The translations under genes were made by a program, and so were the position numbers. From a virus (taxonomy: Duplodnaviria; Caudoviricetes), in the IMG/VR virus record IMGVR_UViG_3300006467_000282, positions 18,032 through 82,031 of that record: a DNA stretch of 64,000 nt, one strand, 5' to 3'. Below the pieces are notes generated by a model. That model did not search any database. It was not told the DNA's origin and worked only from the letters and a program-made list of their open reading frames with translations. Of the stretch, positions 17,874 through 59,784 are shown piece after piece (positions within the stretch are counted from its first letter, which is position 1; every line of letters starts with the position of its first letter).

Positions 17874-18113
17874 ATGGAACAAGATAACATATTAATTAAG
17901 TTATTGAAGTCACTATTTATTTTTATTATAGTAATAGGCTTAAGCATTGCTATTAGTTTAATTACGGATTGGTATTTCAGATTACCAGTTATTCATCAGT
18001 CATATTCATCTAAGGAATGTATCAAGATCATGATCGAAGGTGAAGAGTATGACTGTTCCAGGTTTGAGGAACTCACTAATAATCTTAAATACAGACGAGA
18101 ATGGGTGAAATAA
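17874..18113 (+). CDS. Small membrane protein
   Basis: GGAGG RBS; one transmembrane segment. Confidence 0.65.
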   Translation: MEQDNILIKLLKSLFIFIIVIGLSIAISLITDWYFRLPVIHQSYSSKECIKIMIEGEEYDCSRFEELTNNLKYRREWVK

Positions 18114-19654: not shown

Positions 19655-19917
19655 AATTATTCCTATTATGCATTCTTATTTTCTTTTATTTGGCGATATT
19701 AATTTGGACTTTTTGGGAAGATCGAACAGGAACATATTGGAGTTGGGATAGCGGAGAACTAACCCGTACAACAACATATGCTGATAAAACTACAAAAGGT
19801 TTTTGGTGGGCTGCTATATGGCCTCTTCGATTTGTTTATTTCTTTATAAATAATCTCTTATACCTAATAAAAGAATTAGGTAAATTAGTTTTATTAGGAA
19901 TCGGAATTAAACTATGA
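19651..19917 (+). CDS. Membrane protein
   Basis: Hydrophobic segments; coupled overlap. Confidence 0.65.
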   Translation: MKLFLLCILIFFYLAILIWTFWEDRTGTYWSWDSGELTRTTTYADKTTKGFWWAAIWPLRFVYFFINNLLYLIKELGKLVLLGIGIKL

Positions 19918-21581
19918 AATACGAATTCAAAATGCAGCCTTGGGATCATCAGAGAAATGCGTTGTTGGTTTCCTGGAATAAATATTACTTTGCACTATTA
20001 ATGGAATATGGTACAGGGAAAACCAAAGTAATAATAGATACTACGGGAATTCTTTATGAACGGGATGAGGTTGAAGCTTTATTTGTAATTGCACCAAATG
20101 GAGTGCATGAACAATGGATTAATGAGCAAGTACCTGAACACCTTCCAGAACGTATTCCATATATTGCACGTATCTGGACCGGATCCCGTTCCAAAAAGTT
20201 TAAACGTTCATTGGAAGAATTCTGGGATGAAAAGAATAAGGGTAAGCTCAAGATTTTTACAATGAATGTTGAAGCTTTACAATCAAGTAAAAATGCAAGA
20301 AACTTTGCCATTAAATTCTTAAAGGATTTTGATACATTATTGACTGTAGATGAATCAACAAGGATTAAAACTCCTGGAGCCAAACGAACAAAGTTCATAG
20401 TAAATCGCTTAGGCATAATTGCCAAATACAGAAGAACATTGACCGGTAATGAGATTACTCGTTCACCATTTGATGTCTATTCACCCTATACATTTTTATA
20501 CAAAGATTTCTGGAATCCAATTCCAAACCACCATATTTTTACACATAGATTTGGTGAATGGAAAACTCAGAAGTTCCCAAAGAAATCTGTTAAGGTTTCA
20601 TCTTTTACTTGCCCGCACTGTCTTGATACACCAGAGCAAATTCTTTTAAAAAGACAGTCGGGCATTATCTTTCCGACATGTAATATATGTGATAAAATTG
20701 TTCGGGAGAATAATCGTTATCCGTTATGTTCTAATATTGCGCTTAAGGCCAAAACTCCAGTATATCCTAAAAATTTAAAAAAGTTAATCAATAATGACGG
20801 CGTATTTGAATTTCCAAAATTAATCAAATACAAAAACATGGAACAGCTCAGGGCAATGACCAAAGAGCACTCCTTCCTGGTTAGGAAAGAAGATTGCATG
20901 GATCTGCCGCCAAAGATTTATCAGCCAATATATTGTGAGATGAACGATGAACAAACCAGGATTTATAAGGAATTAAAGGAAGAATTATATACTGAATATA
21001 ATGGTGTAGAACTTTCTGTTCCAAATAAGATTGCTTTAATGGTGCGATTTCAACAAATCGTTGGTGGATTCTTCCCCGAGACTGGTGATCCAATCGGAAA
21101 GAAAAATCCTAAGATCGAATCAATGCTATATGATTTAGAAGATATTGATTGTGCTAATCCTATTATAATATGGTCGCGTTTCACTGCTGAAATAAAAGCT
21201 ATTACTCATAGATTGAAACAAGAATATCATGATAGAAGCGTTGTTTCATTCTTCGGTGAAACTCCAAAAGAAAAGCGACCACAGATTAAAGAAGACTTTA
21301 AAGCAGGAAAGATCCGCTATTTTGTAGCAAATCAAGCAGTTGGTGGAACAGGATTAAACCTGCAATTAGCTTATATGATGTATTATTATTCTAATTCGTT
21401 TAATGCTGAAGATAGATGGCAAAGCGAAGATAGAATACATCGTGGTGGTCAAACTAAAACTTGTCTTTACAAGGATATCTTCATGCGGGGAACAGTAGAC
21501 GATACTCTTAAAAAAGCAAACGATGATAAGAAGAACATCGCTGAATATTTTAAAGGTAACGAGATACAGGACTTAGTATAA
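19914..21581 (+). CDS. SNF2-family helicase
   Basis: MEYGTGKT, VDEST, LTGNEI, IIWSRF, GGTGLNL, QSEDRIHRGGQ. Confidence 0.92.
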   Translation: MKYEFKMQPWDHQRNALLVSWNKYYFALLMEYGTGKTKVIIDTTGILYERDEVEALFVIAPNGVHEQWINEQVPEHLPERIPYIARIWTGSRSKKFKRSLEEFWDEKNKGKLKIFTMNVEALQSSKNARNFAIKFLKDFDTLLTVDESTRIKTPGAKRTKFIVNRLGIIAKYRRTLTGNEITRSPFDVYSPYTFLYKDFWNPIPNHHIFTHRFGEWKTQKFPKKSVKVSSFTCPHCLDTPEQILLKRQSGIIFPTCNICDKIVRENNRYPLCSNIALKAKTPVYPKNLKKLINNDGVFEFPKLIKYKNMEQLRAMTKEHSFLVRKEDCMDLPPKIYQPIYCEMNDEQTRIYKELKEELYTEYNGVELSVPNKIALMVRFQQIVGGFFPETGDPIGKKNPKIESMLYDLEDIDCANPIIIWSRFTAEIKAITHRLKQEYHDRSVVSFFGETPKEKRPQIKEDFKAGKIRYFVANQAVGGTGLNLQLAYMMYYYSNSFNAEDRWQSEDRIHRGGQTKTCLYKDIFMRGTVDDTLKKANDDKKNIAEYFKGNEIQDLV

Positions 21582-28039: not shown

Positions 28040-28549
28040 ATGGAACACGCATTTTTAGTAGAAATAAATACAATGAATTATCGGAAATGGGATTCTAATA
28101 AAAATGAAATTCATGGACGATTTGTAATAATGGAAAGTCCGACACAGCTAAGCGATTATTTTCCGCAAGAAAAATTAGTTCAGCTAAGAACAAATATTCG
28201 TGGTAAAGAAAGCAAGTCAGATATCAGTAAATCAGCTAAAAAGTTAGCAAAAGAATGTTATAATGCAATCATAAAAATTAAACCACAAGTTCAATCTACA
28301 GTTAACCCTAAAGTTAACTCCACAGAAAAGAAAGTAACTAAATCTGGCCGCTTAAGAGAGTATTTTCTAATGAATGAAAGCGGTTCTGTATCGGATTTAG
28401 TTGCTTTTACAGGTTTTGATGAGAAAAATCTCAGAACAGCAGTTAGTATTTTAGCAAATCCTGGTAGAACAAAATATCCAATAGTTATTCAGTATGATTC
28501 CGACAATAAAATATATAAATTAGAAAAGGAGGATGAATGCCAAGCATAA
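28040..28549 (+). CDS. Hypothetical protein with a possible C-terminal winged helix
   Basis: GAGG RBS; SVSDLVAFTGFDEKNLRTAVSIL. Confidence 0.65.
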   Translation: MEHAFLVEINTMNYRKWDSNKNEIHGRFVIMESPTQLSDYFPQEKLVQLRTNIRGKESKSDISKSAKKLAKECYNAIIKIKPQVQSTVNPKVNSTEKKVTKSGRLREYFLMNESGSVSDLVAFTGFDEKNLRTAVSILANPGRTKYPIVIQYDSDNKIYKLEKEDECQA

Positions 28550-29028
28550 TATTTGAAGGACCAGATGGAGCTGGTAAAAGTTATATTGCAAGTTATATAA
28601 GTACAGTATCTAAAATTCCAATTTATCATGCTGGAGGACCACCAAAAACTCCGGAAGAAATAGTGGAACGTGCTAATAAAATGGTGAAAATGGAAAACAA
28701 GATATTTGATAGATTTCCTATAATTTCTGAACAAATATATGGAACTATCGTCAGGGATAATAATCCCTTTAACTTTGGAGATTTAAAAGATATTCCTTTT
28801 CCCGTTGTATATTGCAGACCTTTTCGAGAGACATTGCTTTCATCAGAAAAAATTGAAAAGGATTATAAAGCAGGTAAACATATGAAGAGTGTCCTGGAAA
28901 AATATGAACAAATTATCGACAAATATGACGAACTTATGAGTTCGTTACCACATTTAACCTTTAATAGGGATTTAGAATCATGTGCGGACTTTCTTACACG
29001 ATTGGAAAGAACAATATTGAGAAAATGA
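28537..29028 (+). CDS. Thymidylate-kinase-like dNMP kinase
   Basis: IIFEGPDGAGKS P-loop; DRF...SEQIYG. Confidence 0.85.
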   Translation: MPSIIFEGPDGAGKSYIASYISTVSKIPIYHAGGPPKTPEEIVERANKMVKMENKIFDRFPIISEQIYGTIVRDNNPFNFGDLKDIPFPVVYCRPFRETLLSSEKIEKDYKAGKHMKSVLEKYEQIIDKYDELMSSLPHLTFNRDLESCADFLTRLERTILRK

Positions 29029-30314
29029 ACGAAACCCTCAGGCATCGAGGAATACGTTCAAGTTATAAAAAATTAAATGATAATGATTTATATCTCGGCC
29101 ATACCCGACTTCCAATTCAGGGGGTTGATAAAAGATATGACCAACCATCTGTATATGGAAATTATACAGCAGCAATGGTTGGAGAATTGTTTAATTTCAG
29201 AGCAATGGACCCAAGTGCAAGGACTGATTTATCTGTTTTAATGGATCAATATTCAATGAACGGGTCAAATGTATTTATGAATTTTGATGGGTTTTGGTCA
29301 GTCATTATTTATAATGAATTTACGGGTTATACTGATATTTTCACAGATCATCTTGCAAAGAAACCCTTATACTATAGAACTGATCTGTGCGCATTTGCTT
29401 CAGAAATAAAAGCATTAACTGTATTAGGTGAAAATACATTTGATAAAACTTATTTCTCAGCTGTTGCTAAATGGGGATACTGCCCTGAAGATCGTACACC
29501 CTTTAGCGAAATCAAAAAGTTGCCCGGTGGAGCACATATCCAGTTGAATTCTATGGGTTATGTAATTAATTCTAAGTCCTATCTAAGTCTATTACCAAGT
29601 CCATCCGCAAGTTTAGAACTTATTATGGAAGATGCAGTTCGAAATCGTTTGGTATCTGATGTTCCAGTTTCCTTGCTCATGAGTGGTGGTTTGGATAGTA
29701 CAATTATATATTATCTTATGAGAAAACATACAGATTCGATGACTATTTTTCATATAGATAATGATGAAGCAGAATATTTGAATTATATTGACTTTCGCCC
29801 ACAAGACAAACTTATTTCCTTATCCATTGATGATACCTTATACGATACAGATGAAGTACTTTGGCATAATGATGGACCTGTTGATCTTGGATCGTTAATG
29901 CCTCAGTATCTTCTTGCAAAGGAAATTAAAAAACATGGATTTAACGTGTGCTTATCAGGTGATGGTGCTGATGAATTGTTCGGTGGATATAAAAGGATAA
30001 CTGAATATGATTCACAGTATTCTGATATATTTCATGAGCTTGCTTATTATCATTTACCAAGGCTGGATAAAATGATGATGGCTCATACAATTGAATTGCG
30101 TTCACCATTTCTTGCCCATTATGTAATTGAACACGCGCTGTCTATGAAGTATGAAGACAGGATTAATAAAATAGGATTAAAAGAAGCATTCAAACATATT
30201 GTTCCTGAAGAAATAGTTAATCGTAAGAAAAAACCATTAAGATATCGTACCGATTGGCGGCACGATTTGATTAAACAATATAAAGATCTAATAATCAAGC
30301 GAGGTTTAGTATGA
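28980..30314 (+). CDS. Asparagine-synthetase B-like amidotransferase (Ntn-GAT + PP-loop)
   Basis: MCG N-terminus, RHRG, GHTRL, MSGGLDS, SGDGADELFGGY, RLDKMMMAHTIELRSPFL. Confidence 0.9.
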   Translation: MCGLSYTIGKNNIEKMNETLRHRGIRSSYKKLNDNDLYLGHTRLPIQGVDKRYDQPSVYGNYTAAMVGELFNFRAMDPSARTDLSVLMDQYSMNGSNVFMNFDGFWSVIIYNEFTGYTDIFTDHLAKKPLYYRTDLCAFASEIKALTVLGENTFDKTYFSAVAKWGYCPEDRTPFSEIKKLPGGAHIQLNSMGYVINSKSYLSLLPSPSASLELIMEDAVRNRLVSDVPVSLLMSGGLDSTIIYYLMRKHTDSMTIFHIDNDEAEYLNYIDFRPQDKLISLSIDDTLYDTDEVLWHNDGPVDLGSLMPQYLLAKEIKKHGFNVCLSGDGADELFGGYKRITEYDSQYSDIFHELAYYHLPRLDKMMMAHTIELRSPFLAHYVIEHALSMKYEDRINKIGLKEAFKHIVPEEIVNRKKKPLRYRTDWRHDLIKQYKDLIIKRGLV

Positions 30315-30961
30315 ATGTAAATGATGTAGAAGAAATTGAAATTGAAGGTGATATGCTCGAAGCAATATTTGCGAAACAGAAATCATTGATGGATAAATAT
30401 CATGTGATTGAAGAAAAGCAGGGAGTTGGGTATGGAATATTGAAAGGTAATCCTTTTGATATCAATGAAATCCGCTCTCAATGTTTGGTAAAAGATTTTG
30501 CTTGGCGGTTTACAGAAGAAATTACTGAAGCTTCCGAGGGATTATTGAATGGGGAAACGGCGCATTTTCTAGAAGAACTTGCTGATGCTCTTCATTTCAT
30601 AACTGAACTTTGTATTATGGTTGAGATTACTCCGAAAGATCTTATTGGCGAATTCCTCGGTTATAATCCTGATCAGGATATGTTTTATAAGTTATTTTTT
30701 GTTTGTGGTATGCCTAGAAAAGCTCTTCCGGATACATACAAACCAATTTACCATATGGGTTTGGCAATGAATTGCTTGAAACAAAAACCATGGAAGCAAA
30801 CACACATTCTTACAGACCAAACTGCTTTTAAAAAACATATAATAGATTCCTACAGAGCTTTTTGTGAATATATGTCCCATTTTGAAGATGACAAAACTAT
30901 GGCCAGTTATTATTTCAAAAAGAACGTTGTAAATCAATTCCGTCAAGACACACAATACTAA
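30311..30961 (+). CDS. All-alpha dimeric dUTPase/dCTPase-like pyrophosphatase
   Basis: TEEITEA, EELADALHF, KPWK, Y.KKN.VN.FRQ...Y. Confidence 0.8.
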   Translation: MNVNDVEEIEIEGDMLEAIFAKQKSLMDKYHVIEEKQGVGYGILKGNPFDINEIRSQCLVKDFAWRFTEEITEASEGLLNGETAHFLEELADALHFITELCIMVEITPKDLIGEFLGYNPDQDMFYKLFFVCGMPRKALPDTYKPIYHMGLAMNCLKQKPWKQTHILTDQTAFKKHIIDSYRAFCEYMSHFEDDKTMASYYFKKNVVNQFRQDTQY

Positions 30962-30971
30962 TGGAGGTAAT

Positions 30972-31334
30972 ATGGGTTCTGTGATTGCAAGAATAAATGG
31001 TAATCGGTGTAAGTTCAATAATAACAAACATTTCGCTTTATATTTAATCGAAATATTGATTTACTCAGTTTCTCCCTTAGACGTTAAACTTAAAACCCTG
31101 GCTGAAATAATGGAAATGTCCGGACATAAAAGACGAATTAAATCCTGGGGTAAGGTTGATACTGATGAAAAATTTTCTAAATTATATTCAGAAACAATTC
31201 TTGCAATGGAAAATCTTTCCCCATTACCCGGTTTCAGTTCTTCAAAACCGAATGCTGTAAAAGCTGGATATAATAACCCGGAAAGAGGTCGGATATCGAC
31301 TGATTGGACAAAAGATAAGAATCTTAACAAATAA
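30972..31334 (+). CDS. Hypothetical protein inside the modification cluster
   Basis: GGAGG RBS. Confidence 0.7.
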   Translation: MGSVIARINGNRCKFNNNKHFALYLIEILIYSVSPLDVKLKTLAEIMEMSGHKRRIKSWGKVDTDEKFSKLYSETILAMENLSPLPGFSSSKPNAVKAGYNNPERGRISTDWTKDKNLNK

Positions 31335-31336
31335 AT

Positions 31337-31543
31337 ATGTTTGAAGAGTTTGATAAAATACAGCGTGAAAATGCAGAGGGTAACACTTGCCGTACATGTA
31401 AATATTGTGCTAAATCAAACTTACTTACTAATCATTACTATTATTATTGCCACGTTCTACGATCAAAAAGAACGCGTTCTAAAATGATGAGAGTTAAACT
31501 AAAAGACAGAGCATGCGTAAATTACAAGGAGAAGAAAAAATGA
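31337..31543 (+). CDS. Small Cys-rich protein
   Basis: CRTCKYC...C...AC. Confidence 0.55.
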   Translation: MFEEFDKIQRENAEGNTCRTCKYCAKSNLLTNHYYYYCHVLRSKRTRSKMMRVKLKDRACVNYKEKKK

Positions 31544-32391
31544 CATACGAAATTGAACACGTAAATCTAAAGAAACAAGAAATTCCAGATGATTATCATT
31601 GCGATTGTGACTTTTGCAAAGAATTCGGTGGAGTACTAATTCGTGAAGACGGAACAAAATACAACAAACTCGAACGCCGTAAATACTATGATACTGAAAA
31701 TGAAAAGACTCATATTGCAAAAACACCATTGCACGTTGCTCGCTGGGCAATTCAGGAATATAGCGATGAAGCTGAAAATGTTCTTGATCCAACAATGGGT
31801 GCAGGTACAACTGCAGTAGAAGCTCTTATGCAGAAGAGAAATGCATTCGGAGTTGAAATTCAGTTCATTGACGTTATTAAAGCTAATATTGCAAAATGTA
31901 ATCCATATGATATGCATGCAAAAATATATCATGGTGATGCTCGTGGTATTGCAGATTACTTCAGGGGTGAATCATTTGATTTGATTATTAATAATCCACC
32001 ATATTCTGGGGATGAAAATCAAACAAGTTTTGGCGGGGATAAACGCAACATGATGGAATACGATAAAACCCTGGCTAAGAATCTTGCTTTCATGAAAGAA
32101 AATGAGGCGTATTGGGGTACAATGTCAGATATCTATCGGGCTGCAACCAGGAGATTAAAAGTAGGTGGGCGTCTGGTAATTGGTGTTAAAGATATGGTGA
32201 AAAATAAAGCTCCATTCCTGATTCATAAACATTACGGCGAAGGTATAATGCGAATTGAAGATATGAGATTTGAAAAAATGGTTCTTCTTCCACATTATCC
32301 GACAACACTTTTCATGAATACATACAATAAACGCTTTCCAGATGTCAAAGTTCCACAATACCAAACAATACTTGTGTTTATAAAAGTTTAA
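31540..32391 (+). CDS. N6-adenine/N4-cytosine amino-methyltransferase family protein
   Basis: HIAKTP, VLDPTMGAGTT (motif I) before NNPPY (motif IV), LKVGGRL. Start set at 31540 behind AAGGAG. Confidence 0.85.
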   Translation: MTYEIEHVNLKKQEIPDDYHCDCDFCKEFGGVLIREDGTKYNKLERRKYYDTENEKTHIAKTPLHVARWAIQEYSDEAENVLDPTMGAGTTAVEALMQKRNAFGVEIQFIDVIKANIAKCNPYDMHAKIYHGDARGIADYFRGESFDLIINNPPYSGDENQTSFGGDKRNMMEYDKTLAKNLAFMKENEAYWGTMSDIYRAATRRLKVGGRLVIGVKDMVKNKAPFLIHKHYGEGIMRIEDMRFEKMVLLPHYPTTLFMNTYNKRFPDVKVPQYQTILVFIKV

Positions 32392-32454: not shown

Positions 32455-33168
32455 ATGAGAATATTTACAAATCCAGTAGAAATGGTTAAAGAAGTTGAAC
32501 GAGATTTATTTGAAATGGGAACTCGTTATCAGTCATCAACAGTGCAGGATCAAGACGTGGCAGATGATCCTGATTTCCAAACAATGGAATTATGTGGATA
32601 TGCTTATATGTTGACTGAATTTGATTCAAACAATATGTTTGATATGCTTGATCATTCCGGGAAAATTAACGCAGAATGGTTGAACTACGAAGACCAGGAA
32701 CGTCGATATGGAACTACTGACAGACCACTAAATCCAGGATTAGCTTATACATTTAATGGTGAATTCTGGGAGAAATTTATTAGAAATGGCGTATTCTCTT
32801 ATTCATATGCTGAGCGTTTCCAAGCACAACTCCCCTATATTATTCGGGAATTAAAAGCTAAACCGAATACTCGCCAAGCAGTTATGACAATGTATGATCG
32901 TCACCAAGATATGATGCATTGGGGCGGACGAGATCGTGTTCCTTGCTCATTGACTTATCAGTTTATGTTGAGAGAAGATAAACTTGTTCTGATTTATAAC
33001 CAAAGATCTTGTGATTTTGTTAAGTTTTTCCCATCAGATGTTTGGTTAACAGTTAATCTGCTTAAACATGTTGCAAGAGAAATTGGTAAAGAACCAGGGC
33101 AGTTTATCCATATGCTTGGATCACTCCATGCATTTGCAGGTGATCTTAAAGGTAAAGAGATATTCTGA
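32455..33168 (+). CDS. dCMP hydroxymethylase-like thymidylate-synthase homolog
   Basis: ELKAKPNTRQA, VPCSLTYQF, QRSCDFVKFFPSD (Asp at the ThyA Asn177 / T4 gp42 Asp179 site), GSLHAF. Confidence 0.85.
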   Translation: MRIFTNPVEMVKEVERDLFEMGTRYQSSTVQDQDVADDPDFQTMELCGYAYMLTEFDSNNMFDMLDHSGKINAEWLNYEDQERRYGTTDRPLNPGLAYTFNGEFWEKFIRNGVFSYSYAERFQAQLPYIIRELKAKPNTRQAVMTMYDRHQDMMHWGGRDRVPCSLTYQFMLREDKLVLIYNQRSCDFVKFFPSDVWLTVNLLKHVAREIGKEPGQFIHMLGSLHAFAGDLKGKEIF

Positions 33169-33388: not shown

Positions 33389-33799
33389 ATGAAAAAAATT
33401 AACGTAACGAATGTATTATTTTTATTGGCAATTCTATTTGTATTAAGTATTTTAACCCTCAATGGTTGTGGAAATGAAGATGCTCGAGTTGCATCCAATA
33501 ATCTATCAAAAGCTGCAGATATGTTTGAGATTAATAGAAGAGTTGTTTTTTACAACGGCATTACTGATAAGTATATCTTATCAATTGAAGGACGTTGCGC
33601 AGTAGAGTTTTTTCCAAATAAATTTACTGTAACTATAAAAACTGGTCCGAATGAATTCAAAAAGCATTACTTGGGAAGAGCTGATAATGTTTTCCCTTTC
33701 GTTGAACAACTTGATGCTGTACCAGTGGATGTTTATCATTATAAAGTCATCTTCAAACCACAGTCAATTATTCCAGATATAGATATGAAAGTAAAGTAG
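33389..33799 (+). CDS. Conserved phage lipoprotein
   Basis: Signal peptide with lipobox-like LNGC; DARVASNNLSKAADMFEINRRVVFYNGITD. Confidence 0.8.
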   Translation: MKKINVTNVLFLLAILFVLSILTLNGCGNEDARVASNNLSKAADMFEINRRVVFYNGITDKYILSIEGRCAVEFFPNKFTVTIKTGPNEFKKHYLGRADNVFPFVEQLDAVPVDVYHYKVIFKPQSIIPDIDMKVK

Positions 33800-34716: not shown

Positions 34717-35172
34717 ATGAAAAGACCATCGCAAGATAAATATTTCATGTCAATGGCGATGCTTGCTGCAACACGCTCAAATTGTTATCGTCGGCAAGTA
34801 GGTTGTGTAATTATTGATAAAGAAAATCGTGTACTTGCCACAGGCTACAATGGCGTTCCTTCAGGATATCCCCACTGCGAAATCGGGGAATGCCCAAGAG
34901 ATAAACCTGGGGCGGATTTACATTTATGTCTTGCAATACATGCAGAACAGAATGCTCTATTGCAGTGTTCAGATGTAGATAAGATTCATAAAGTATATGT
35001 AACTGATAGTCCGTGTTTGACTTGCACAGTAATGTTGATGAATACTAATTGCAAGCAAATCCTATACAACAAGCCATATCCTGGGCATGAAACATCAAAA
35101 GATGCGTGGAAGAAACTAAATCGAATCTGGAGACAATATGACTTTCGTTCAAGCACCATTATTCCCAACTAA
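34717..35172 (+). CDS. dCMP deaminase
   Basis: RSNCYRRQVGCVI, TGYNG, IHAEQNAL, SPCLTC. Confidence 0.92.
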   Translation: MKRPSQDKYFMSMAMLAATRSNCYRRQVGCVIIDKENRVLATGYNGVPSGYPHCEIGECPRDKPGADLHLCLAIHAEQNALLQCSDVDKIHKVYVTDSPCLTCTVMLMNTNCKQILYNKPYPGHETSKDAWKKLNRIWRQYDFRSSTIIPN

Positions 35173-37153
35173 AGCAAAATGGGAATTGCCCAAGGAATTA
35201 CCGAATCTATCTGGAGCTAAAGTAATCGGACTCGATACTGAGACACGCGATCCACAGCTTATAGAAAAAGGTCCGGGGGTAAGACGAGATGGATACCTGG
35301 TTGGAATATCAGTTGCAGTTCCAGAAGGTGATACCTGGTATTTGCCATTTGGCCATGCTGAAGGTAAACAATTTGAACGTGAAAATGTGTTACGTTGGGC
35401 AAAAGATAATCTATGCAATCCAAATCAACCAAAAGTCGGAGCAAATATATTATATGATTTAGATTATCTATATCATGCAGGAGTAAAAGTAGCAGGATCT
35501 TTCTTTGATATCCAAAATGCAGAACCGTTAATAGATGAAAATGCATATAGTTATTCTCTTGACACTTTAGCCAGGAAATATTTAGGTGAGAGCAAGCGGG
35601 AAGATATCTTAGATGATGTTTGTCGAGATTACGGATTAAAGGGTAAATCTCAAAAGCATTTATGGAGATTCGGTGCTGAATATACCGGAACATATGCTGA
35701 GGGTGATGCAATCCAAGCTCTGCGAATATTTGAAAAACAGAAACCTGTTATTGCAGCGCAGGGATTAGAAACAGTGTTTGATATGGAAACACGTCTTATA
35801 CCAATGCTTTTGCATATGAGACAACTCGGTGTACCAATTGATGTTGATCGATTAATGGGTTTACATGATCAAATGACAGGTGAGCTTGATCAGCACAAGC
35901 TCGATCTTGATAATATTGCAGGTAGTCATATTGATTACTGGGCAGCAGAGTCAATTGCTAAAGTATTTGATAAATCAGGGATTGATTATCCATTAACACC
36001 CAAATCTAAAAAGCCATCATTCACAAAAGATTGGCTTGATAATCATGGAAGTGATCTTTCCAGAAAGATATTGAAATGTAGAGAAGTCGACAAATTTGTA
36101 GGAACATTTCTTGAAGGTTCACTATTAGAAATGTTAGTTGGGGATCGGATTCATTGTCAATTTAATCAATTAAGGTCAGATGAATTTGGAACAGTAACAG
36201 GTAGATTCTCATCCTCAAATCCCAACTTACAATTTATTCCTACAAGAACAGCTTTAGGGAAACTTTGCCGAAAATTATTCATACCAGACGAAGGTTATGG
36301 GTGGTGTAAAGCAGATTATTCTCAAATCGAAATAAGAATATTAGCACATTATGCAATGGGGAACGGAGCAGATGACGTTCGTCAAACTTTTATAGATAAT
36401 CCCAGAGTCGATTATCACCAATGGTGTGCTGATATTGCAGGAGTTAGTCGTAGTGCTGCAAAGACTATTAACTTTGGAATTGTTTATGGAATGGGAGCTG
36501 AAAAGCTTGGCCGATCATTAGGAATTCCAACACATGAAGCTAAGAAATTCATCGACAACTACTTTATAGAATTACCTTTTGTAAAACATACTGTAGGTCA
36601 AGCAACACAAGCAGCAGAAAAACGTGGATATATTAAAACTATTCTTGGTCGCCGTAGAAGATATGATCTTTGGGAACCAAATGATTTTGATCTTGGTAAA
36701 ATAATAAAAGCAGACCGTAGTCCGAAAGTAGTTGAGAAAAGAATAGAAAAATATATCTCAGAAAATAAAGGTAACCTCGGTAGAAAAGTTCGTCGGGGAG
36801 TAAAACGAGCAGGATGCTATCGAGCATTTAATGCTGCTGATCAGGGATCTGCAGCTGATATTATGAAACTTGCTTTAGTTGATATTTGGGAAAGTGGAGT
36901 CTGCGATGTTATTAAACCATATATAACTGTACACGATGAATTAGATTTTGGTTATCCACTTTCAAAAATCGGTAAAGAGGCAATTTATGAAGTTAAACAT
37001 ATCATGGAAGATGTTTATGAACTGAAAGTTCCAATGATCTGCGATATTGAAACCGGCCCGAATTGGGGCAATGTAAATGAACAGTGGAATTTATGTAATA
37101 AATATACTGAGGCAGGTCATAAATTTGCAGTAAAACAAGCGGAGATAGGATAA
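35138..37153 (+). CDS. DNA polymerase family A with 3'-5' exonuclease domain
   Basis: GLDTET, TGRFSSSNPNLQ, ADYSQIEIR, RSAAKTINFG, VHDEL. Confidence 0.95.
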   Translation: MTFVQAPLFPTKAKWELPKELPNLSGAKVIGLDTETRDPQLIEKGPGVRRDGYLVGISVAVPEGDTWYLPFGHAEGKQFERENVLRWAKDNLCNPNQPKVGANILYDLDYLYHAGVKVAGSFFDIQNAEPLIDENAYSYSLDTLARKYLGESKREDILDDVCRDYGLKGKSQKHLWRFGAEYTGTYAEGDAIQALRIFEKQKPVIAAQGLETVFDMETRLIPMLLHMRQLGVPIDVDRLMGLHDQMTGELDQHKLDLDNIAGSHIDYWAAESIAKVFDKSGIDYPLTPKSKKPSFTKDWLDNHGSDLSRKILKCREVDKFVGTFLEGSLLEMLVGDRIHCQFNQLRSDEFGTVTGRFSSSNPNLQFIPTRTALGKLCRKLFIPDEGYGWCKADYSQIEIRILAHYAMGNGADDVRQTFIDNPRVDYHQWCADIAGVSRSAAKTINFGIVYGMGAEKLGRSLGIPTHEAKKFIDNYFIELPFVKHTVGQATQAAEKRGYIKTILGRRRRYDLWEPNDFDLGKIIKADRSPKVVEKRIEKYISENKGNLGRKVRRGVKRAGCYRAFNAADQGSAADIMKLALVDIWESGVCDVIKPYITVHDELDFGYPLSKIGKEAIYEVKHIMEDVYELKVPMICDIETGPNWGNVNEQWNLCNKYTEAGHKFAVKQAEIG

Positions 37154-44915: not shown

Positions 44916-45142
44916 AAATCAAAAAAGATCAATTGGTAAAAGTTAATCATGTACGTAAAGGTAGATTTAATGCAATTGCAGATAATGATTTCGATACAGA
45001 TACAACAACATGGTATCCACTATCGGTAGCTCAGGAAGATCCAATTAATGGTTTTTCTACAGTAGCAAAGTGGAGAAAAGGCGAATCAATTCCATGTAGA
45101 AATTCACTCTGTGAGATTTCAATAATTGAGAAAGGTAAATAA
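44912..45142 (+). CDS. Hypothetical protein
   Basis: ATGA overlap; start reset from 44897. Confidence 0.65.
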   Translation: MKIKKDQLVKVNHVRKGRFNAIADNDFDTDTTTWYPLSVAQEDPINGFSTVAKWRKGESIPCRNSLCEISIIEKGK

Positions 45143-45143
45143 A

Positions 45144-46340
45144 ATGAAAAGCATAATAGTTTATTCGGGCAAGGGCGGAGTTGGGAAGACAACTACTACT
45201 GCAAACTTGGCAAAAGCACTTGTTGATAAAGGGAAAAGCGTATTTATATTGGACGCGGATATAAATACTCCATCCATGCATGTTGTTTTCCCAGATAAAA
45301 CTGTTAATAAGAACTTATACGTACATTCCATGGGGTATGATACTCGTGGATTAGTTTATATTCAAGGTAGTATGGTAAAAAAATACATCAGACAAGCAAA
45401 AACAAAAGTTAATAAGATGAAACCTGATATTGTATTGATTGATACTCCACCCTCTATAACAGATATTCATCTTAATTTAATTGAATCTTTGGAAGTATCT
45501 GGAGTTATTTTTGTAACTCAACCTAATAAACTAAGTATGGAAGATGTCGGTCGAACTTCTGGATTTTTTAAAACAAAAGAGATACCAGTAATTGGTATAA
45601 TTGAAAATATGAGTCAGGGAGAAGCTATTGATTATACAGTTTCTTTACTTGGCAAAATAAAATTCGAATCATCTTTTGATATTGAAAAAGTATTCAAGCT
45701 TAATTATAAAACTTATGATGAAATTTCTAATATAGTAATGGATGCGGAAGATGCAATATATGAAAGTAGTACAAAACAATTTACCGATGAATCTATTTCT
45801 GAAGAAGCTGTACAGGAAATGATGCGTTCTAAATTAATGCCTAAATTAAAGTTCGTTAATTTAGCAACTTGGGATTACCTGGTTGAATATTTCTTAGAAA
45901 ATGATTTTGCTGGATTATATTCTTTGGATAGATTTATAGATCATAATACAACAGAGAAAATAGGTAGAATGTTAAAAGCATTTGAGCATGATAAAGAAGC
46001 TTATTTTATGGTAATCAATGCTCCTTGTACACCTATTCCGATAATCACTGGCGAAATTGGTCAAGCAACTTTGATATTAGATAATCCATCACACTATGGT
46101 GTACCTTCAGTTGATTACCAAACCAACCAGGGAACAGTTAGATTATTTCCACATGAGATAATGCCGTTGGATTTGAAGGAATTGAATATTCATACACAGG
46201 AAGAAGGCGTCGTAATGACAACTGATGGTAGATATTTACCGTCAAAAGAAACTGTCGAAGCTTGTTATCATGCATATGGCAATCTTGCTGGATTATCAAG
46301 TAACTGGGAAGAAACTTACAATAAAATAGTGGCAGAATAA
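45144..46340 (+). CDS. Mrp/ApbC-like (ParA/MinD superfamily) ATPase with a C-terminal extra domain
   Basis: SGKGGVGKTT, LDADINTPS, IDTPP, VTQP, GIIENMS. Confidence 0.82.
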   Translation: MKSIIVYSGKGGVGKTTTTANLAKALVDKGKSVFILDADINTPSMHVVFPDKTVNKNLYVHSMGYDTRGLVYIQGSMVKKYIRQAKTKVNKMKPDIVLIDTPPSITDIHLNLIESLEVSGVIFVTQPNKLSMEDVGRTSGFFKTKEIPVIGIIENMSQGEAIDYTVSLLGKIKFESSFDIEKVFKLNYKTYDEISNIVMDAEDAIYESSTKQFTDESISEEAVQEMMRSKLMPKLKFVNLATWDYLVEYFLENDFAGLYSLDRFIDHNTTEKIGRMLKAFEHDKEAYFMVINAPCTPIPIITGEIGQATLILDNPSHYGVPSVDYQTNQGTVRLFPHEIMPLDLKELNIHTQEEGVVMTTDGRYLPSKETVEACYHAYGNLAGLSSNWEETYNKIVAE

Positions 46341-56283: not shown

Positions 56284-56457
56284 TTGAAAGAGAATACGTT
56301 TGCAAAAATGAATAGAACAAGCCTTTTCGAGCATATAAATGCTCTTGAAAAGATAAATGAAGATAAACAGAATATGATTGATTCTCTCGAACGATCTAAT
56401 AAAATGAAGAATAATATGATCGATAGATTAATCATAAAAAAGAATGGAGGAAAGTAA
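56284..56457 (+). CDS. Hypothetical protein (57 aa, TTG start)
   Basis: GGAGG RBS; TAATG coupling to thyX; not in the track. Confidence 0.45.
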   Translation: MKENTFAKMNRTSLFEHINALEKINEDKQNMIDSLERSNKMKNNMIDRLIIKKNGGK

Positions 56458-57092
56458 TGAAAGTCATTGAACAAAGTTTTGAAATTATTAGTTTGCCGGA
56501 AAATCTGCTTCAGACATTGGAAAAAGCAGGTAGAACATGTTACAAATCAGAAGATAAAATTACTGAAGATTCTGCAGCAAAATTCGTTGAAATGTTAATC
56601 AAACGGGGTCATCATGCAATGATTGAATTTGGGGATATCATTGTTAAGTGTATTACTAATCGTGGGGTTACTCATGAAATTGTAAGACATCGATTAAGTT
56701 CTTATGCACAGGAATCAACCCGATATGTTAATTATAAGGGCGGTATGGAATTTATAAGACCTGTTTGGATGAACAAGCTTTTAACTGATCCCGAATATGA
56801 TTCTTCATTTAAGAATCTTCCCGATAGTGATATAATATGGTTAAAAGCTATGGCACAATCTGAAAATTCATATCTTAATTTATTAGATGAAGGTTGGCGT
56901 CCAGAACAAGCACGAGAAGTATTGCCAAACTCATTAAAGACAGAAATTGTATGGAAAGCAAATATCCGGGAATGGAGACATATCTTCACCCTGAGAACAT
57001 CCCCAAAAGCACATCCACAAATGGTTGCTTTAATGACTCCTCTGCTGAAATATTTGCAGTCGGAAATTCCAGTAGTATTTGATGATTTATAA
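56457..57092 (+). CDS. thyX: Flavin-dependent thymidylate synthase
   Basis: RGHHAMIEF, RGVTHEIVRHRLSSYAQESTRY, ARE.LP, NIREWRH. Confidence 0.93.
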   Translation: MKVIEQSFEIISLPENLLQTLEKAGRTCYKSEDKITEDSAAKFVEMLIKRGHHAMIEFGDIIVKCITNRGVTHEIVRHRLSSYAQESTRYVNYKGGMEFIRPVWMNKLLTDPEYDSSFKNLPDSDIIWLKAMAQSENSYLNLLDEGWRPEQAREVLPNSLKTEIVWKANIREWRHIFTLRTSPKAHPQMVALMTPLLKYLQSEIPVVFDDL

Positions 57093-58061: not shown

Positions 58062-58448
58062 ATGATTGTTAAGTATAAAACGCATAAAGAATTTGTAATA
58101 GATTATGATACTAAAAAGGAAACAGTCAAAGGGAAAATAATCTTTATTGAAGAAGATCCGGAGACTGTTTTCATTGTCGGGGCGAAAACACTTATAAAAT
58201 TGAATGCAATAGAATATGAAAATTTTCTGGAAAGGTTCTCGACATTAACCGAAATAAGATCTGTTAGTTATACATCGGGTATAATGCGCTATATAAAAGC
58301 CGAGACTATGCGTTTTGCTTTGGTTGTTCGATCTGCCAATGGTAAACAAGAGGTATTGGACGCCGTGGATAAAGCATCAGAAGATATGTTCTATTTGGTA
58401 AAGGAACTTACTCCAGAACCCGCAAAGGAGGACAGTGATGGAGAATGA
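58062..58448 (+). CDS. Hypothetical protein
   Basis: GAGGAGG RBS; start reset from 58017. Confidence 0.65.
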   Translation: MIVKYKTHKEFVIDYDTKKETVKGKIIFIEEDPETVFIVGAKTLIKLNAIEYENFLERFSTLTEIRSVSYTSGIMRYIKAETMRFALVVRSANGKQEVLDAVDKASEDMFYLVKELTPEPAKEDSDGE

Positions 58449-59784
58449 ATCATCTGCAGAAAATATAAAAACACTCGATGAAATAGTAAAGGAAGATGAA
58501 AAATTTTTATCCATCCCAGAACATTTACTATCTCCGGGGGGATTCTTGGAAGAATATATGCGATATTATGAAGCTAATTCAGTCTATCATTATCCTGAAT
58601 TAGCTCTAATGACTTCCCTGGTTGTAATGGGAACTGTTTTTGGTAATCGTATAACTACTGAAACTGGCCTAAGAACAAATATGATGCTGGCAGTTCTTGC
58701 TCCACCAGGGTTTGGTAAGAATCCATCCTTAGAAACAGCATCACGATTTTTTAATCCTACATCACTTGATCATATGGGAAATTCTTCCAATTCAAAATTA
58801 GTTAATCTATATACTGCTAAAAGATTATTGGGAGCAACTTCCTTCACAAGCAAAGAAGCTATTCTATTTGATCTTAATGAATATCCGACTAAATTATTAG
58901 TCATTGATGAAGCAGGTCATATCTTTAAACAAATCAAATCCAGCACTAAAATGCAGGGAGTACCTGCAATATTGAATGATTTGTTTACAAAAACAGGTCA
59001 TATCTATAAAAAAGTATTACGGAAAGGTAAAAAGCGTGTTAATGTAGAAATATCTTGTCCACACTTATCTGTTATACTTGCAGCAACACCTAAATCTTTT
59101 TGGCCAAGCATTGATTATTCCGATTTTGAAATGGGATTTATTCCCCGAATTCTCATCATGCAATTATCGGAAAAAGCTGAAAGAAAAGATTTGTCAGAAT
59201 TCGATTTGGATAAGTTCAGGAAAGAAGTGTTCGATTATAGTTACATCCACAAATACCAGGATCCTACTATAATTGGGAAGAGTAAAGAAGCATCAGAATA
59301 TTTCTATAAATGGGCAGATAACTTGGAACATGCATATAAAATGGATACTTTCCAATATGCGGCAACAACTCGTGTTGCTGAATATGCAAGTAAATTTGCT
59401 ATTCTCCACGCTGTTTCAAGGAAAAGAGGAGTAGTTGGATTAGATTCTGTTAAATGGGCGATTGAATTGTCTATGTATCTATTGGATGTAAAATTAAATA
59501 ATAGTGAAGAGCACATGAAACAGAGTAAATTCACGCAGAGTGTTAACGAATTCTATAAAAGAATGGTACAATCAATGAAAAGGCGGAAGAAAAATCATTT
59601 GACAAGTACAGACCTTAGCCGGGAATTTGGAACAATCTGGCATAGTCCTGTGAGAGCTGATATGCTAAAAACACTAATTGAATCTGAAAAGATAATACTT
59701 GTTAAGAGTAACGAGGGAAGCAGAAGAAAACCACAAAAGCAGTACTATCTTTATACTAAAAGAAGATTAGGGGGAGCAAAATGA
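58435..59784 (+). CDS. DUF3987/YfjI-like P-loop ATPase
   Basis: GLRTNMMLAVLAPPGFGK, IDEAG, CPHLSVILAATP, GFIPR. Confidence 0.7.
   Translation: MMENESSAENIKTLDEIVKEDEKFLSIPEHLLSPGGFLEEYMRYYEANSVYHYPELALMTSLVVMGTVFGNRITTETGLRTNMMLAVLAPPGFGKNPSLETASRFFNPTSLDHMGNSSNSKLVNLYTAKRLLGATSFTSKEAILFDLNEYPTKLLVIDEAGHIFKQIKSSTKMQGVPAILNDLFTKTGHIYKKVLRKGKKRVNVEISCPHLSVILAATPKSFWPSIDYSDFEMGFIPRILIMQLSEKAERKDLSEFDLDKFRKEVFDYSYIHKYQDPTIIGKSKEASEYFYKWADNLEHAYKMDTFQYAATTRVAEYASKFAILHAVSRKRGVVGLDSVKWAIELSMYLLDVKLNNSEEHMKQSKFTQSVNEFYKRMVQSMKRRKKNHLTSTDLSREFGTIWHSPVRADMLKTLIESEKIILVKSNEGSRRKPQKQYYLYTKRRLGGAK

Follow-up and report, generated by a model that had tools for sequence, protein, structure and literature searches.

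A virus-only protein of the asparagine-synthetase fold with an altered glutamine site, a candidate tailoring enzyme for C5-modified cytosine nucleotides

What reaction is carried out by an asparagine synthetase (AsnB)-like protein that is encoded among the nucleotide genes of a phage and whose glutaminase motif has changed? The question is raised by a stretch of 64,000 nucleotides (positions 18,032 to 82,031) of the IMG/VR virus record IMGVR_UViG_3300006467_000282 (Caudoviricetes), referred to here as the window. The window makes up the end of the record, which is 82,031 bp long, bears direct terminal repeats, is rated complete and has a G+C content of approximately 33%. An earlier note, made from the sequence alone, had described the protein, here called P0001, as an AsnB-like enzyme that keeps Cys2 and the PP-loop, reads VGELFN where NGEIYN is usual, and is encoded by a gene overlapping those of a kinase and a dCTPase; it had proposed that the enzyme adenylates a nucleotide substituent and adds ammonia or another amine, rather than making asparagine. 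Judged from its sequence, P0001 is a member of a compact (~430–470 aa), virus-only branch of the asparagine-synthetase fold. With about even confidence, we read it as an optional ATP-dependent tailoring enzyme that would act on a C5-modified cytosine mononucleotide, adenylating an oxygen and putting in nitrogen.

The open reading frame (ORF) of P0001 is free of stops, encodes 444 residues and begins with MCG. The MCG start, GHTRL (residues 40–44), SGGLDS, SGDGADELFGGY and VGELFN all translate as described earlier, and the overlaps given before are exact, the kinase ORF ending at 29028 (49 nt) and the next ORF starting at 30311 within ATGA (4 nt). In a public annotation the protein is called as P0002, with 429 aa and a start at Met16, within the 49-nt overlap (window 28980–29027), so that Cys2 is dropped. 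Among the N-termini of 29 aligned sequences, 28 read M-C-G and one L-C-G; since the MCG start is kept in homologues, position 28980 is the real start, not Met16. As the P0002 call exemplifies, the N-terminal nucleophile (Ntn) of these proteins can be missed when genes are called automatically. Pfam matches were to Asn_synthase (PF00733, 7e-49) and to the class II glutamine-amidotransferase domains GATase_6/7, and an AlphaFold2 model built with 29 homologues had a mean predicted local distance difference test score (pLDDT) of 91.8 and a predicted template modelling score (pTM) of 0.91. Domain matches and model together gave the architecture of the Asn_synthase superfamily, an Ntn-glutaminase followed by a PP-loop synthetase. 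The top Foldseek match of the model was E. coli AsnB (1ct9; E 6e-27; template modelling score 0.75–0.78 by query length), and further matches were human ASNS, TsnB9, beta-lactam synthetase (BLS) and carbapenam synthetase (CarA). A pseudogene or decaying gene was rejected on the intact frame, the confident model and the retained family invariants, and an enzyme of the QueC or GAT-QueC type was rejected because Pfam gives Asn_synthase, not QueC.

With E. coli AsnB and human ASNS (1ct9, 6gq3), P0001 shares the two-domain fold, the Cys1 nucleophile, equivalents of Arg49, Glu76, Asn79 and Asp98, the PP-loop, and the ATP/pyrophosphate lysines K397 (=Lys429) and K417 (=Lys449), both of which are invariant in the family. 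It differs from them in length, with about 110 residues fewer, chiefly at the C-terminal end, where approximately 100 AsnB residues lack a counterpart, and in having Val for Asn74, Asp328 for Glu348 and His358 for Asp384. The aspartate-site loop reads T-T-I-R in AsnB, A-D-S in cellular relatives and V-D-L-G in P0001. The replaced loop, Asp328 and His358 are invariant in the family alignment, which comprised 183 non-identical sequences taken from 80 viral loci and a protein search. An acceptor-site signature of N261, D302-L303-G304, E353, Y357 and H358 is common to the three groups of loci described below and missing in the cellular relatives.

Comparison with curated families and with cellular proteins gave the same picture. 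In NCBIfam, P0001 scored 237.5 bits for TIGR01536 (cut-off 267.1) and 164.5 for NF006949 (cut-off 499), below the cut-off in both cases. A scan of one genome each from 185,579 prokaryotic species found no cellular copy at more than 32% identity, the matches being the usual AsnB-like proteins of 560–660 aa, and the closest ESM Atlas clusters were 100% viral. A quick maximum-likelihood tree (IQ-TREE, midpoint root) was built from 34 phage sequences, 28 cellular relatives, E. coli AsnB and gp124 of Streptomyces phage TurkishDelight. In it the 34 phage sequences formed one clade, with a Shimodaira–Hasegawa-like approximate likelihood ratio test (SH-aLRT) value of 100, apart from the 28 cellular relatives and E. 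coli AsnB; nesting among host housekeeping AsnB proteins, the arrangement that the earlier note had named as contrary to its proposal, was looked for and not seen. Because the scores lie below the curated cut-offs, the aspartate-site loop is replaced and the clade is separate and virus-only, P0001 is not an asparagine synthetase, in agreement with the earlier note. A housekeeping AsnB taken from the host was likewise rejected on the scores, the species scan and the tree. In cultured phages, megablast with the 7-kb region gave no match, and a protein search with P0001 gave nothing above 27.5% identity (TurkishDelight gp124, E 5e-20).

The oxyanion hole of AsnB is formed by Asn74 and the backbone of Gly75. 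In human ASNS, Asn74 has also been described as a member of the residue network that surrounds Arg142 where the ammonia tunnel opens (PMC10245805). The phmmer alignment of P0001 to 1ct9 set AMVGELFN on AVNGEIYN, with Val67 on Asn74, Gly68 on Gly75 and Glu69 on Glu76, and the same mapping of Val67 was obtained in a second alignment, made with MAFFT, that included the 28 cellular AsnB-like proteins, E. coli AsnB and TurkishDelight gp124. The loss of the oxyanion Asn, which the earlier note had called apparent, is therefore confirmed. The glutamine site otherwise retains Arg43 (=Arg49), Glu69 (=Glu76) and Asp83 (=Asp98), and is incomplete since Asn74 is replaced by Val67.

At the Asn74 position, the 183 family sequences have Val in 148, Asn in 16, Ala in 11, Thr in 3 and Ser in 3. 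The equivalent of Glu76 is invariant and that of Asp98 is present in 180 of the 183, while Asn74 and Arg49 are both kept in 28/28 cellular relatives, in E. coli AsnB and in TurkishDelight gp124. As Val is the family majority and each of the 169 sequences whose N-terminus is complete has Cys2-Gly3, Val67 is not due to chance or decay.

The residues at the Arg49 and Asn74 positions sort by gene context. Group I (25 loci and the window) has the order kinase-ASN-MazG-methyltransferase-TS-deaminase-PolA, where ASN is the AsnB-like gene and TS a thymidylate synthase homologue, with Arg at the first position and Val at the second. Group II (30 loci), with the order TS-ASN-deaminase near UvsX and DnaB-type genes, has Ser or Ala and Val. 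Group III (13 loci), a kinase-ASN pair in T4-like and jumbo phages of up to 348 kb, has Arg and Asn, and Asn is retained solely in this jumbo/T4-like subgroup. In the quick tree, group III is sister to groups I and II, and with the midpoint root the simplest history would be a single loss of Asn followed by loss of Arg in group II. On these patterns Val67 is a lineage trait and belongs to a stepwise erosion of the glutamine site that differs from lineage to lineage.

Absence of the Asn74 side chain is not in itself proof of an inactive glutaminase, because TsnB9, a functional transferase, has Ser aligned at this position. TsnB9 (7ylz; E 4.8e-14) is the second-best solved relative of P0001 and resembles it in the AsnB fold and in a working N-terminal Cys domain; it differs in its length of 623 aa, its actinomycete natural-product pathway and its lack of a nucleotide context. 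It cleaves glutamyl hydroxamate and moves the hydroxylamine to trichostatic acid (PMC13418202). In P0001, Cys2 and the equivalents of Arg49, Glu76 and Asp98 argue that glutamine or a glutamine-like amide may still be bound and cleaved. The loss of Asn74 and the erosion in sister lineages speak for a donor chemistry that may have been relaxed or altered, with the adenylating domain as the probable conserved core.

One distant relative has no glutaminase domain. When shorter proteins were searched for such members, mostly fragments on short contigs were returned, and the sole clean case was locus L180 (6307–10693), in which a 339-aa Asn_synthase-only protein, a distant relative of P0001 (27% identity over 150 residues), is encoded between a kinase and a dUTPase_2 gene. 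The features of the window are collected in Table 1.

Table 1. Positions of P0001, its motifs and the neighbouring genes in the window
Feature	Position	Strand	Evidence
Tmk-like deoxynucleoside monophosphate (dNMP) kinase, overlaps P0001 gene by 49 nt	28537..29028	+	phrog_761 thymidylate kinase 1e-14
AsnB-fold amidotransferase/amidoligase P0001, 444 aa	28980..30314	+	Pfam, AlphaFold2 model, Foldseek
Cys2 codon, N-terminal nucleophile once Met is removed	28983..28985	+	Cys2-Gly3 in 169/169 complete N-termini
AMVGELFN motif	29172-29195	+	translation
Val67 codon, at AsnB Asn74 (oxyanion-hole side chain)	29178..29180	+	phmmer and MAFFT alignments
PP-loop SGGLDS (ATP pyrophosphatase motif)	29682..29699	+	S, G, G, D, S invariant in 183 sequences
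PVDLGS loop replacing AsnB T-T-I-R aspartate-site loop	29877..29894	+	D302, G304, S305 invariant in 183 sequences
SGDGADELFGGY, Asp328 for AsnB Glu348	29955..29990	+	Asp invariant in 183 sequences
All-alpha nucleoside triphosphate pyrophosphohydrolase (dUTPase_2/MazG type), candidate dCTPase	30311..30961	+	Pfam dUTPase_2 6.8e-8; phrog_12184 nucleotide pyrophosphohydrolase 6.7e-22
120-aa ORF	30972..31334	+	cluster c51: window, L002, L006, L009, L052, all with AsnB-like gene
Amino-methyltransferase (N6/N4 type)	31513..32391	+	Pfam N6_N4_Mtase 2.5e-16
Thymidylate synthase homologue, deoxycytidine monophosphate (dCMP) type	32455..33168	+	Pfam Thymidylat_synt 2.2e-15
dCMP deaminase	34717..35172	+	Pfam dCMP_cyt_deam_1 8e-22
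Family A DNA polymerase (PolA) with 3'-5' exonuclease	35138..37153	+	Pfam DNA_pol_A 4.5e-68
ThyX, the phage's own dTMP route	56457..57092	+	PF02511 1.4e-44 at G000 74533-75105 = window 56502-57074

The neighbours of P0001 are largely those of a nucleotide-modification cassette. The best solved relative of the Tmk-like kinase is SPbeta YorR (2axp), and its P-loop reads FEGPDGAGKS. The TS homologue has the Cys nucleophile, the VPCS and RSCD motifs and Asp169; the residue at the position of Asn177 (L. casei residue 229) is Asp, as in the dCMP type, and its closest solved homologue is in the PDB under the codes 9iqu, 9iqc and 9ir2. The genome thus has ThyX in addition to a dCMP-type ThyA homologue, by which dTMP synthesis is kept separate from cytosine modification. 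By family match a pyrophosphatase, a dNMP kinase and a dCMP deaminase are all present, the predicted make-up of a T4-type cassette. The set by which T4 replaces dC with 5-hydroxymethylcytosine (gp56 dCTPase, gp42 dCMP hydroxymethylase, gp1 dNMP kinase and Cd deaminase) follows the same logic, to which ThyX for dTMP is added here; it differs in having no AsnB-fold enzyme and in tailoring by glucosylation on DNA, whereas in the window the pyrophosphatase is of the MazG/dUTPase_2 type and the kinase is Tmk/YorR-like.

To what extent this context is maintained was examined in related loci, whose genes were clustered by ORF. A single scan gave 459 viral loci for the AsnB-like family, of which the best 80 were compared, and neighbours were counted in 79 related viral loci. 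Of these 79, 57 contained a dCMP-type TS homologue, often directly adjoining, and 37 a deaminase; the gene immediately preceding the AsnB-like one coded for a Tmk-like kinase in about 19 loci, to which the kinase of the jumbo group is to be added. The assignment of P0001 to a nucleotide-modification gene set, implied in the earlier note, is upheld by its place between the dNMP kinase and the MazG/dUTPase_2 gene and by the frequency of the TS homologue. In group III genomes, the same TS-like type is found approximately 90–105 kb from the kinase-AsnB pair, alongside a canonical ThyA. The jumbo-phage records L168 and L167 (G001, G002) each contain a canonical ThyA (273–317 bits) and a divergent dCMP-type TS homologue of 262 aa that is 26% identical to that of the window over its full length; the genes beside the jumbo-phage kinase-AsnB pair had no PHROG or Pfam match. 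Group II loci contain a weak Nmad1 match, a protein resembling uracil-DNA glycosylase (UDG), a cytidylyltransferase-like protein and a further P-loop kinase. In such group II loci (L037:1769–2128, L022:6855–7295, L036:7744–8169), the weak Nmad1 (DUF1599) match and the cytidylyltransferase-like gene precede the TS-AsnB pair, and the small P-loop kinase follows it.

Is the AsnB-like gene an integral part of the cassette? The reciprocal count was made in the 80 TS-homologue loci nearest to that of the window (the best 80 of 426 viral loci), and an AsnB-family gene lay within 10 kb of the TS homologue in 7 of them, L180 included. In many of the other 73 the cassette again ran kinase-MazG-TS-deaminase-PolA, and the kinase gene directly adjoined that of MazG. 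Identity to the window TS protein was 47–54% in loci without the AsnB-like gene and 45–62% in loci with it. In five such viral records without the gene, two of them complete genomes with terminal repeats, no PF00733 match was found. Since the same cassette exists without it, the AsnB-like gene is an optional insertion into a self-sufficient cassette, and this optionality is consistent with a tailoring reaction that acts on the TS product or alongside it.

A second gene follows the same distribution. The N6/N4 amino-methyltransferase type encoded at 31513–32391 was found in 3 of the 7 TS loci with an AsnB-like gene and in none of the 73 without one; by hand calculation, three such loci placed at random among the 80 would all fall in loci with the AsnB-like gene with p ~4e-4. 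Among the AsnB-like loci of groups I and II, 18 of 55 have this amino-methyltransferase type, and in L051 and L053 its gene is the one immediately upstream of the AsnB-like gene. This methyltransferase may act on the nitrogen installed by the AsnB-like enzyme, or on DNA with that base, a suggestion that we infer from the linkage.

One AsnB-family ligase of a phage has been tested in DNA modification. Synechococcus phage S-B43 encodes SpCmoY, a homologue of asparagine synthetase that joins glycine to 5-carboxymethylcytosine on DNA, and this base is itself made on DNA by CmoX with carboxy-S-adenosylmethionine (carboxy-SAM) derived from CmoA (Yang et al., PMC12783734). Like CmoY, P0001 is a phage-encoded, ATP-dependent ligase of the AsnB family in a cytosine-modification set, and an amide on a modified base is proposed for it. 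By its description, CmoY differs in using glycine, lacking a glutaminase domain, acting on DNA and needing CmoA and CmoX (PMC12783734), whereas the partner of P0001 is a TS homologue acting on nucleotides. In the complete 82-kb genome, no match was found for a CmoX-type C5-methyltransferase (PF00145) or for the carboxy-SAM synthase CmoA (TIGR00740); the cofactor might be supplied by the host. With the P0001 synthetase domain as the query, tblastn against the phage collection at E values up to 1 gave no match to S-B43, the SpCmoY sequence itself not being compared. Since groups II and III and the window genome have no C5-methyltransferase homologue, a CmoX-type handle is not the general source of substrate for the family. 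In L180, the dUTPase_2 gene is followed by genes for a UDG-family protein, a C5-methyltransferase homologue and a TS homologue, an arrangement resembling a CmoY/CmoX-like pair inside a TS cassette.

A cluster of CmoY-like proteins with a glutaminase domain, A0A7T0Q3R0, has also been noted and is biochemically uncharacterised (PMC12783734). From its layout we infer that TurkishDelight gp124, in the gene order ParB, ParB, methyltransferase, GATase-AsnB, methyltransferase, may belong to it. This protein, the best cultured-phage match to P0001, likewise combines GATase II and Asn_synthase domains in a phage; it differs in keeping Asn74, Arg49 and Glu348 and in lying outside the P0001 clade, on a long branch.

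The favoured reading of P0001 as a tailoring enzyme can be set out as a pathway, in which the substrate, the level of action (nucleotide or DNA) and the product are deduced, and the fold, motifs, residue pattern, gene context and virus-only clade are observed. The MazG-type enzyme would convert dCTP to dCMP, to which the dCMP-type TS homologue would add a C5 substituent. P0001, with its PP-loop and ATP, would adenylate an oxygen function of the C5-modified nucleotide, by family precedent a carboxylate, and would then exchange the AMP ester for nitrogen to give a cytosine nucleotide that carries an amide or amine. Phosphorylation towards the triphosphate used by PolA would fall to the Tmk-like kinase of the overlapping gene, and the nitrogen so installed may afterwards be methylated by the linked amino-methyltransferase. 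The acidic isoelectric point (pI) of the family (5.4–6.0) and the overlap with the dNMP kinase weakly favour the nucleotide level.

Several points weigh against this pathway. The genes present, as far as they are predicted from sequence, offer no route to a cytosine precursor with a carboxylate, and the TS-family products known to us (methyl, hydroxymethyl and hydroxyl) have no carboxylate. The acidic pI leaves action on DNA possible, and co-location with nucleotide genes is circumstantial. As the family is absent from cultured phages, the best match being the 27.5% identity mentioned above, there is no carrier with known DNA chemistry. In the part of the MetaGPA modified-cytosine screen available to us GATase_7 was not enriched, although this domain is too broad to count; Asn_synthase was not among the entries of the supplements at hand, which is uninformative.

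A more specific product can be suggested only tentatively, and we regard it as less probable than not by a good measure. The nitrogen would be placed on the C5 substituent at the mononucleotide stage, as a C5 carboxamide or 5-aminomethyl group, and then N-methylated by the ASN-linked amino-methyltransferase, giving a cytosine derivative new to DNA; the changes in the glutamine site (Val for Asn74, and loss of Arg49 in sister lineages) would be adaptations to another donor or to free ammonia. The 5-aminomethyl variant would call for activation by AMP of the oxygen of the TS product. For such an alcohol activation, in which a hydroxymethyl oxygen is adenylated and then aminated, we know of no precedent among PP-loop enzymes.

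Other explanations were weighed against the favoured one. P0001 could act on DNA after replication, like CmoY, a C5 carboxyalkyl group on cytosine being adenylated and converted to an amide. This is the reaction of SpCmoY on 5-carboxymethylcytosine (PMC12783734), and it agrees with the C5-methyltransferase homologues in 22 of the 25 loci of group I, the subgroup of P0001 itself, with the glutaminase-less protein in the same slot of L180, next to such a homologue, and with the methyltransferase/GATase-AsnB/methyltransferase trio of TurkishDelight. We nevertheless consider it unlikely, given the complete genome with neither PF00145 nor CmoA, the absence of C5-methyltransferase homologues from all 30 group II and all 13 group III loci, the position of gp124 outside the clade with Asn74 kept, and the acidic pI. 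Quite unlikely is amination of a ring carbonyl in the manner of GMP synthetase or CTP synthase, for example from a 5-substituted dUMP to dCMP through an adenylated lactam oxygen. The PP-loop enzymes GuaA, TilS, ThiI, MnmA and ArgG do adenylate lactam or ureido oxygens, the AsnB-like gene often lies between the TS homologue and the dCMP deaminase, and the invariant Asp302 stands where the aspartate-binding loop is replaced; but no known member of the Asn_synthase family aminates a ring carbonyl, the TS homologue already has the dCMP-type Asp, which makes cytosine the starting base, and ring amination together with a deaminase would be a futile cycle.

A target other than a nucleotide (a glycan, peptide, cofactor or phage protein), the gene being merely co-transcribed with early nucleotide genes, is given a slim chance. 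AsnB paralogues amidate or cyclise many carboxylates, P0001 has NCBIfam matches to the XrtA amidotransferase and to lasso and macrolactam cyclases (none of them near its cut-off), and the kinase-AsnB pair of the jumbo group sits among head genes. Such a target would leave unexplained the linkage to a dCMP-type TS homologue in three unrelated phage backbones and the overlap of the P0001 gene with the dNMP kinase, and no glycan or peptide genes recur beside the AsnB-like gene. A true AsnB function, with P0001 as a glutamine-dependent asparagine synthetase that the phage keeps as an auxiliary metabolic gene, is very improbable: its top family match is TIGR01536 (E 3.4e-70), homologues are labelled asparagine synthase in the source databases and the fold matches AsnB and ASNS, but besides the missed cut-offs and the separate clade there are the loss of Asn74, the replacement of the T-T-I-R loop and of the residue equivalent to Asp384, and the absence of about 100 residues at the C-terminus.

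Whether restriction enzymes, CRISPR nucleases and sequencing chemistries can handle phage DNA depends on its hypermodifications, which have also yielded useful enzymes. CmoY, reported in 2025, is the one tested precedent for an AsnB-fold ligase in DNA base modification; the present family is larger and is tied to TS chemistry at the nucleotide level rather than to carboxy-SAM. If the function suggested by the gene context is true, it would be a new route to a nitrogen-bearing cytosine. The family also provides a natural series for enzymology, from an intact class II glutaminase site to one without the oxyanion Asn and then to one that has also lost the Arg clamp, the Cys always being kept, and the series extends to the distant same-slot relative that has no glutaminase domain, so that the roles of the residues are directly testable. 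The graded erosion of the glutamine site, the status of the gene as an optional add-on, the exclusive association with an amino-methyltransferase and the lack of a C5-methyltransferase homologue in the window genome are what the present analysis adds.

Two of the smaller ORFs near P0001 had no family match, namely the 120-aa ORF at 30972–31334 (Pfam, PHROG and NCBIfam), which occupies the same position in four related cassettes with the AsnB-like gene, and a 169-aa ORF at 28040–28549. Other genes of the window encode a Phage_VG64 family protein (33389–33799), a ParA/MinD-type ATPase (45126–46340), a DUF3987 protein (58435–59784) and an SNF2-type helicase (19914–21581).

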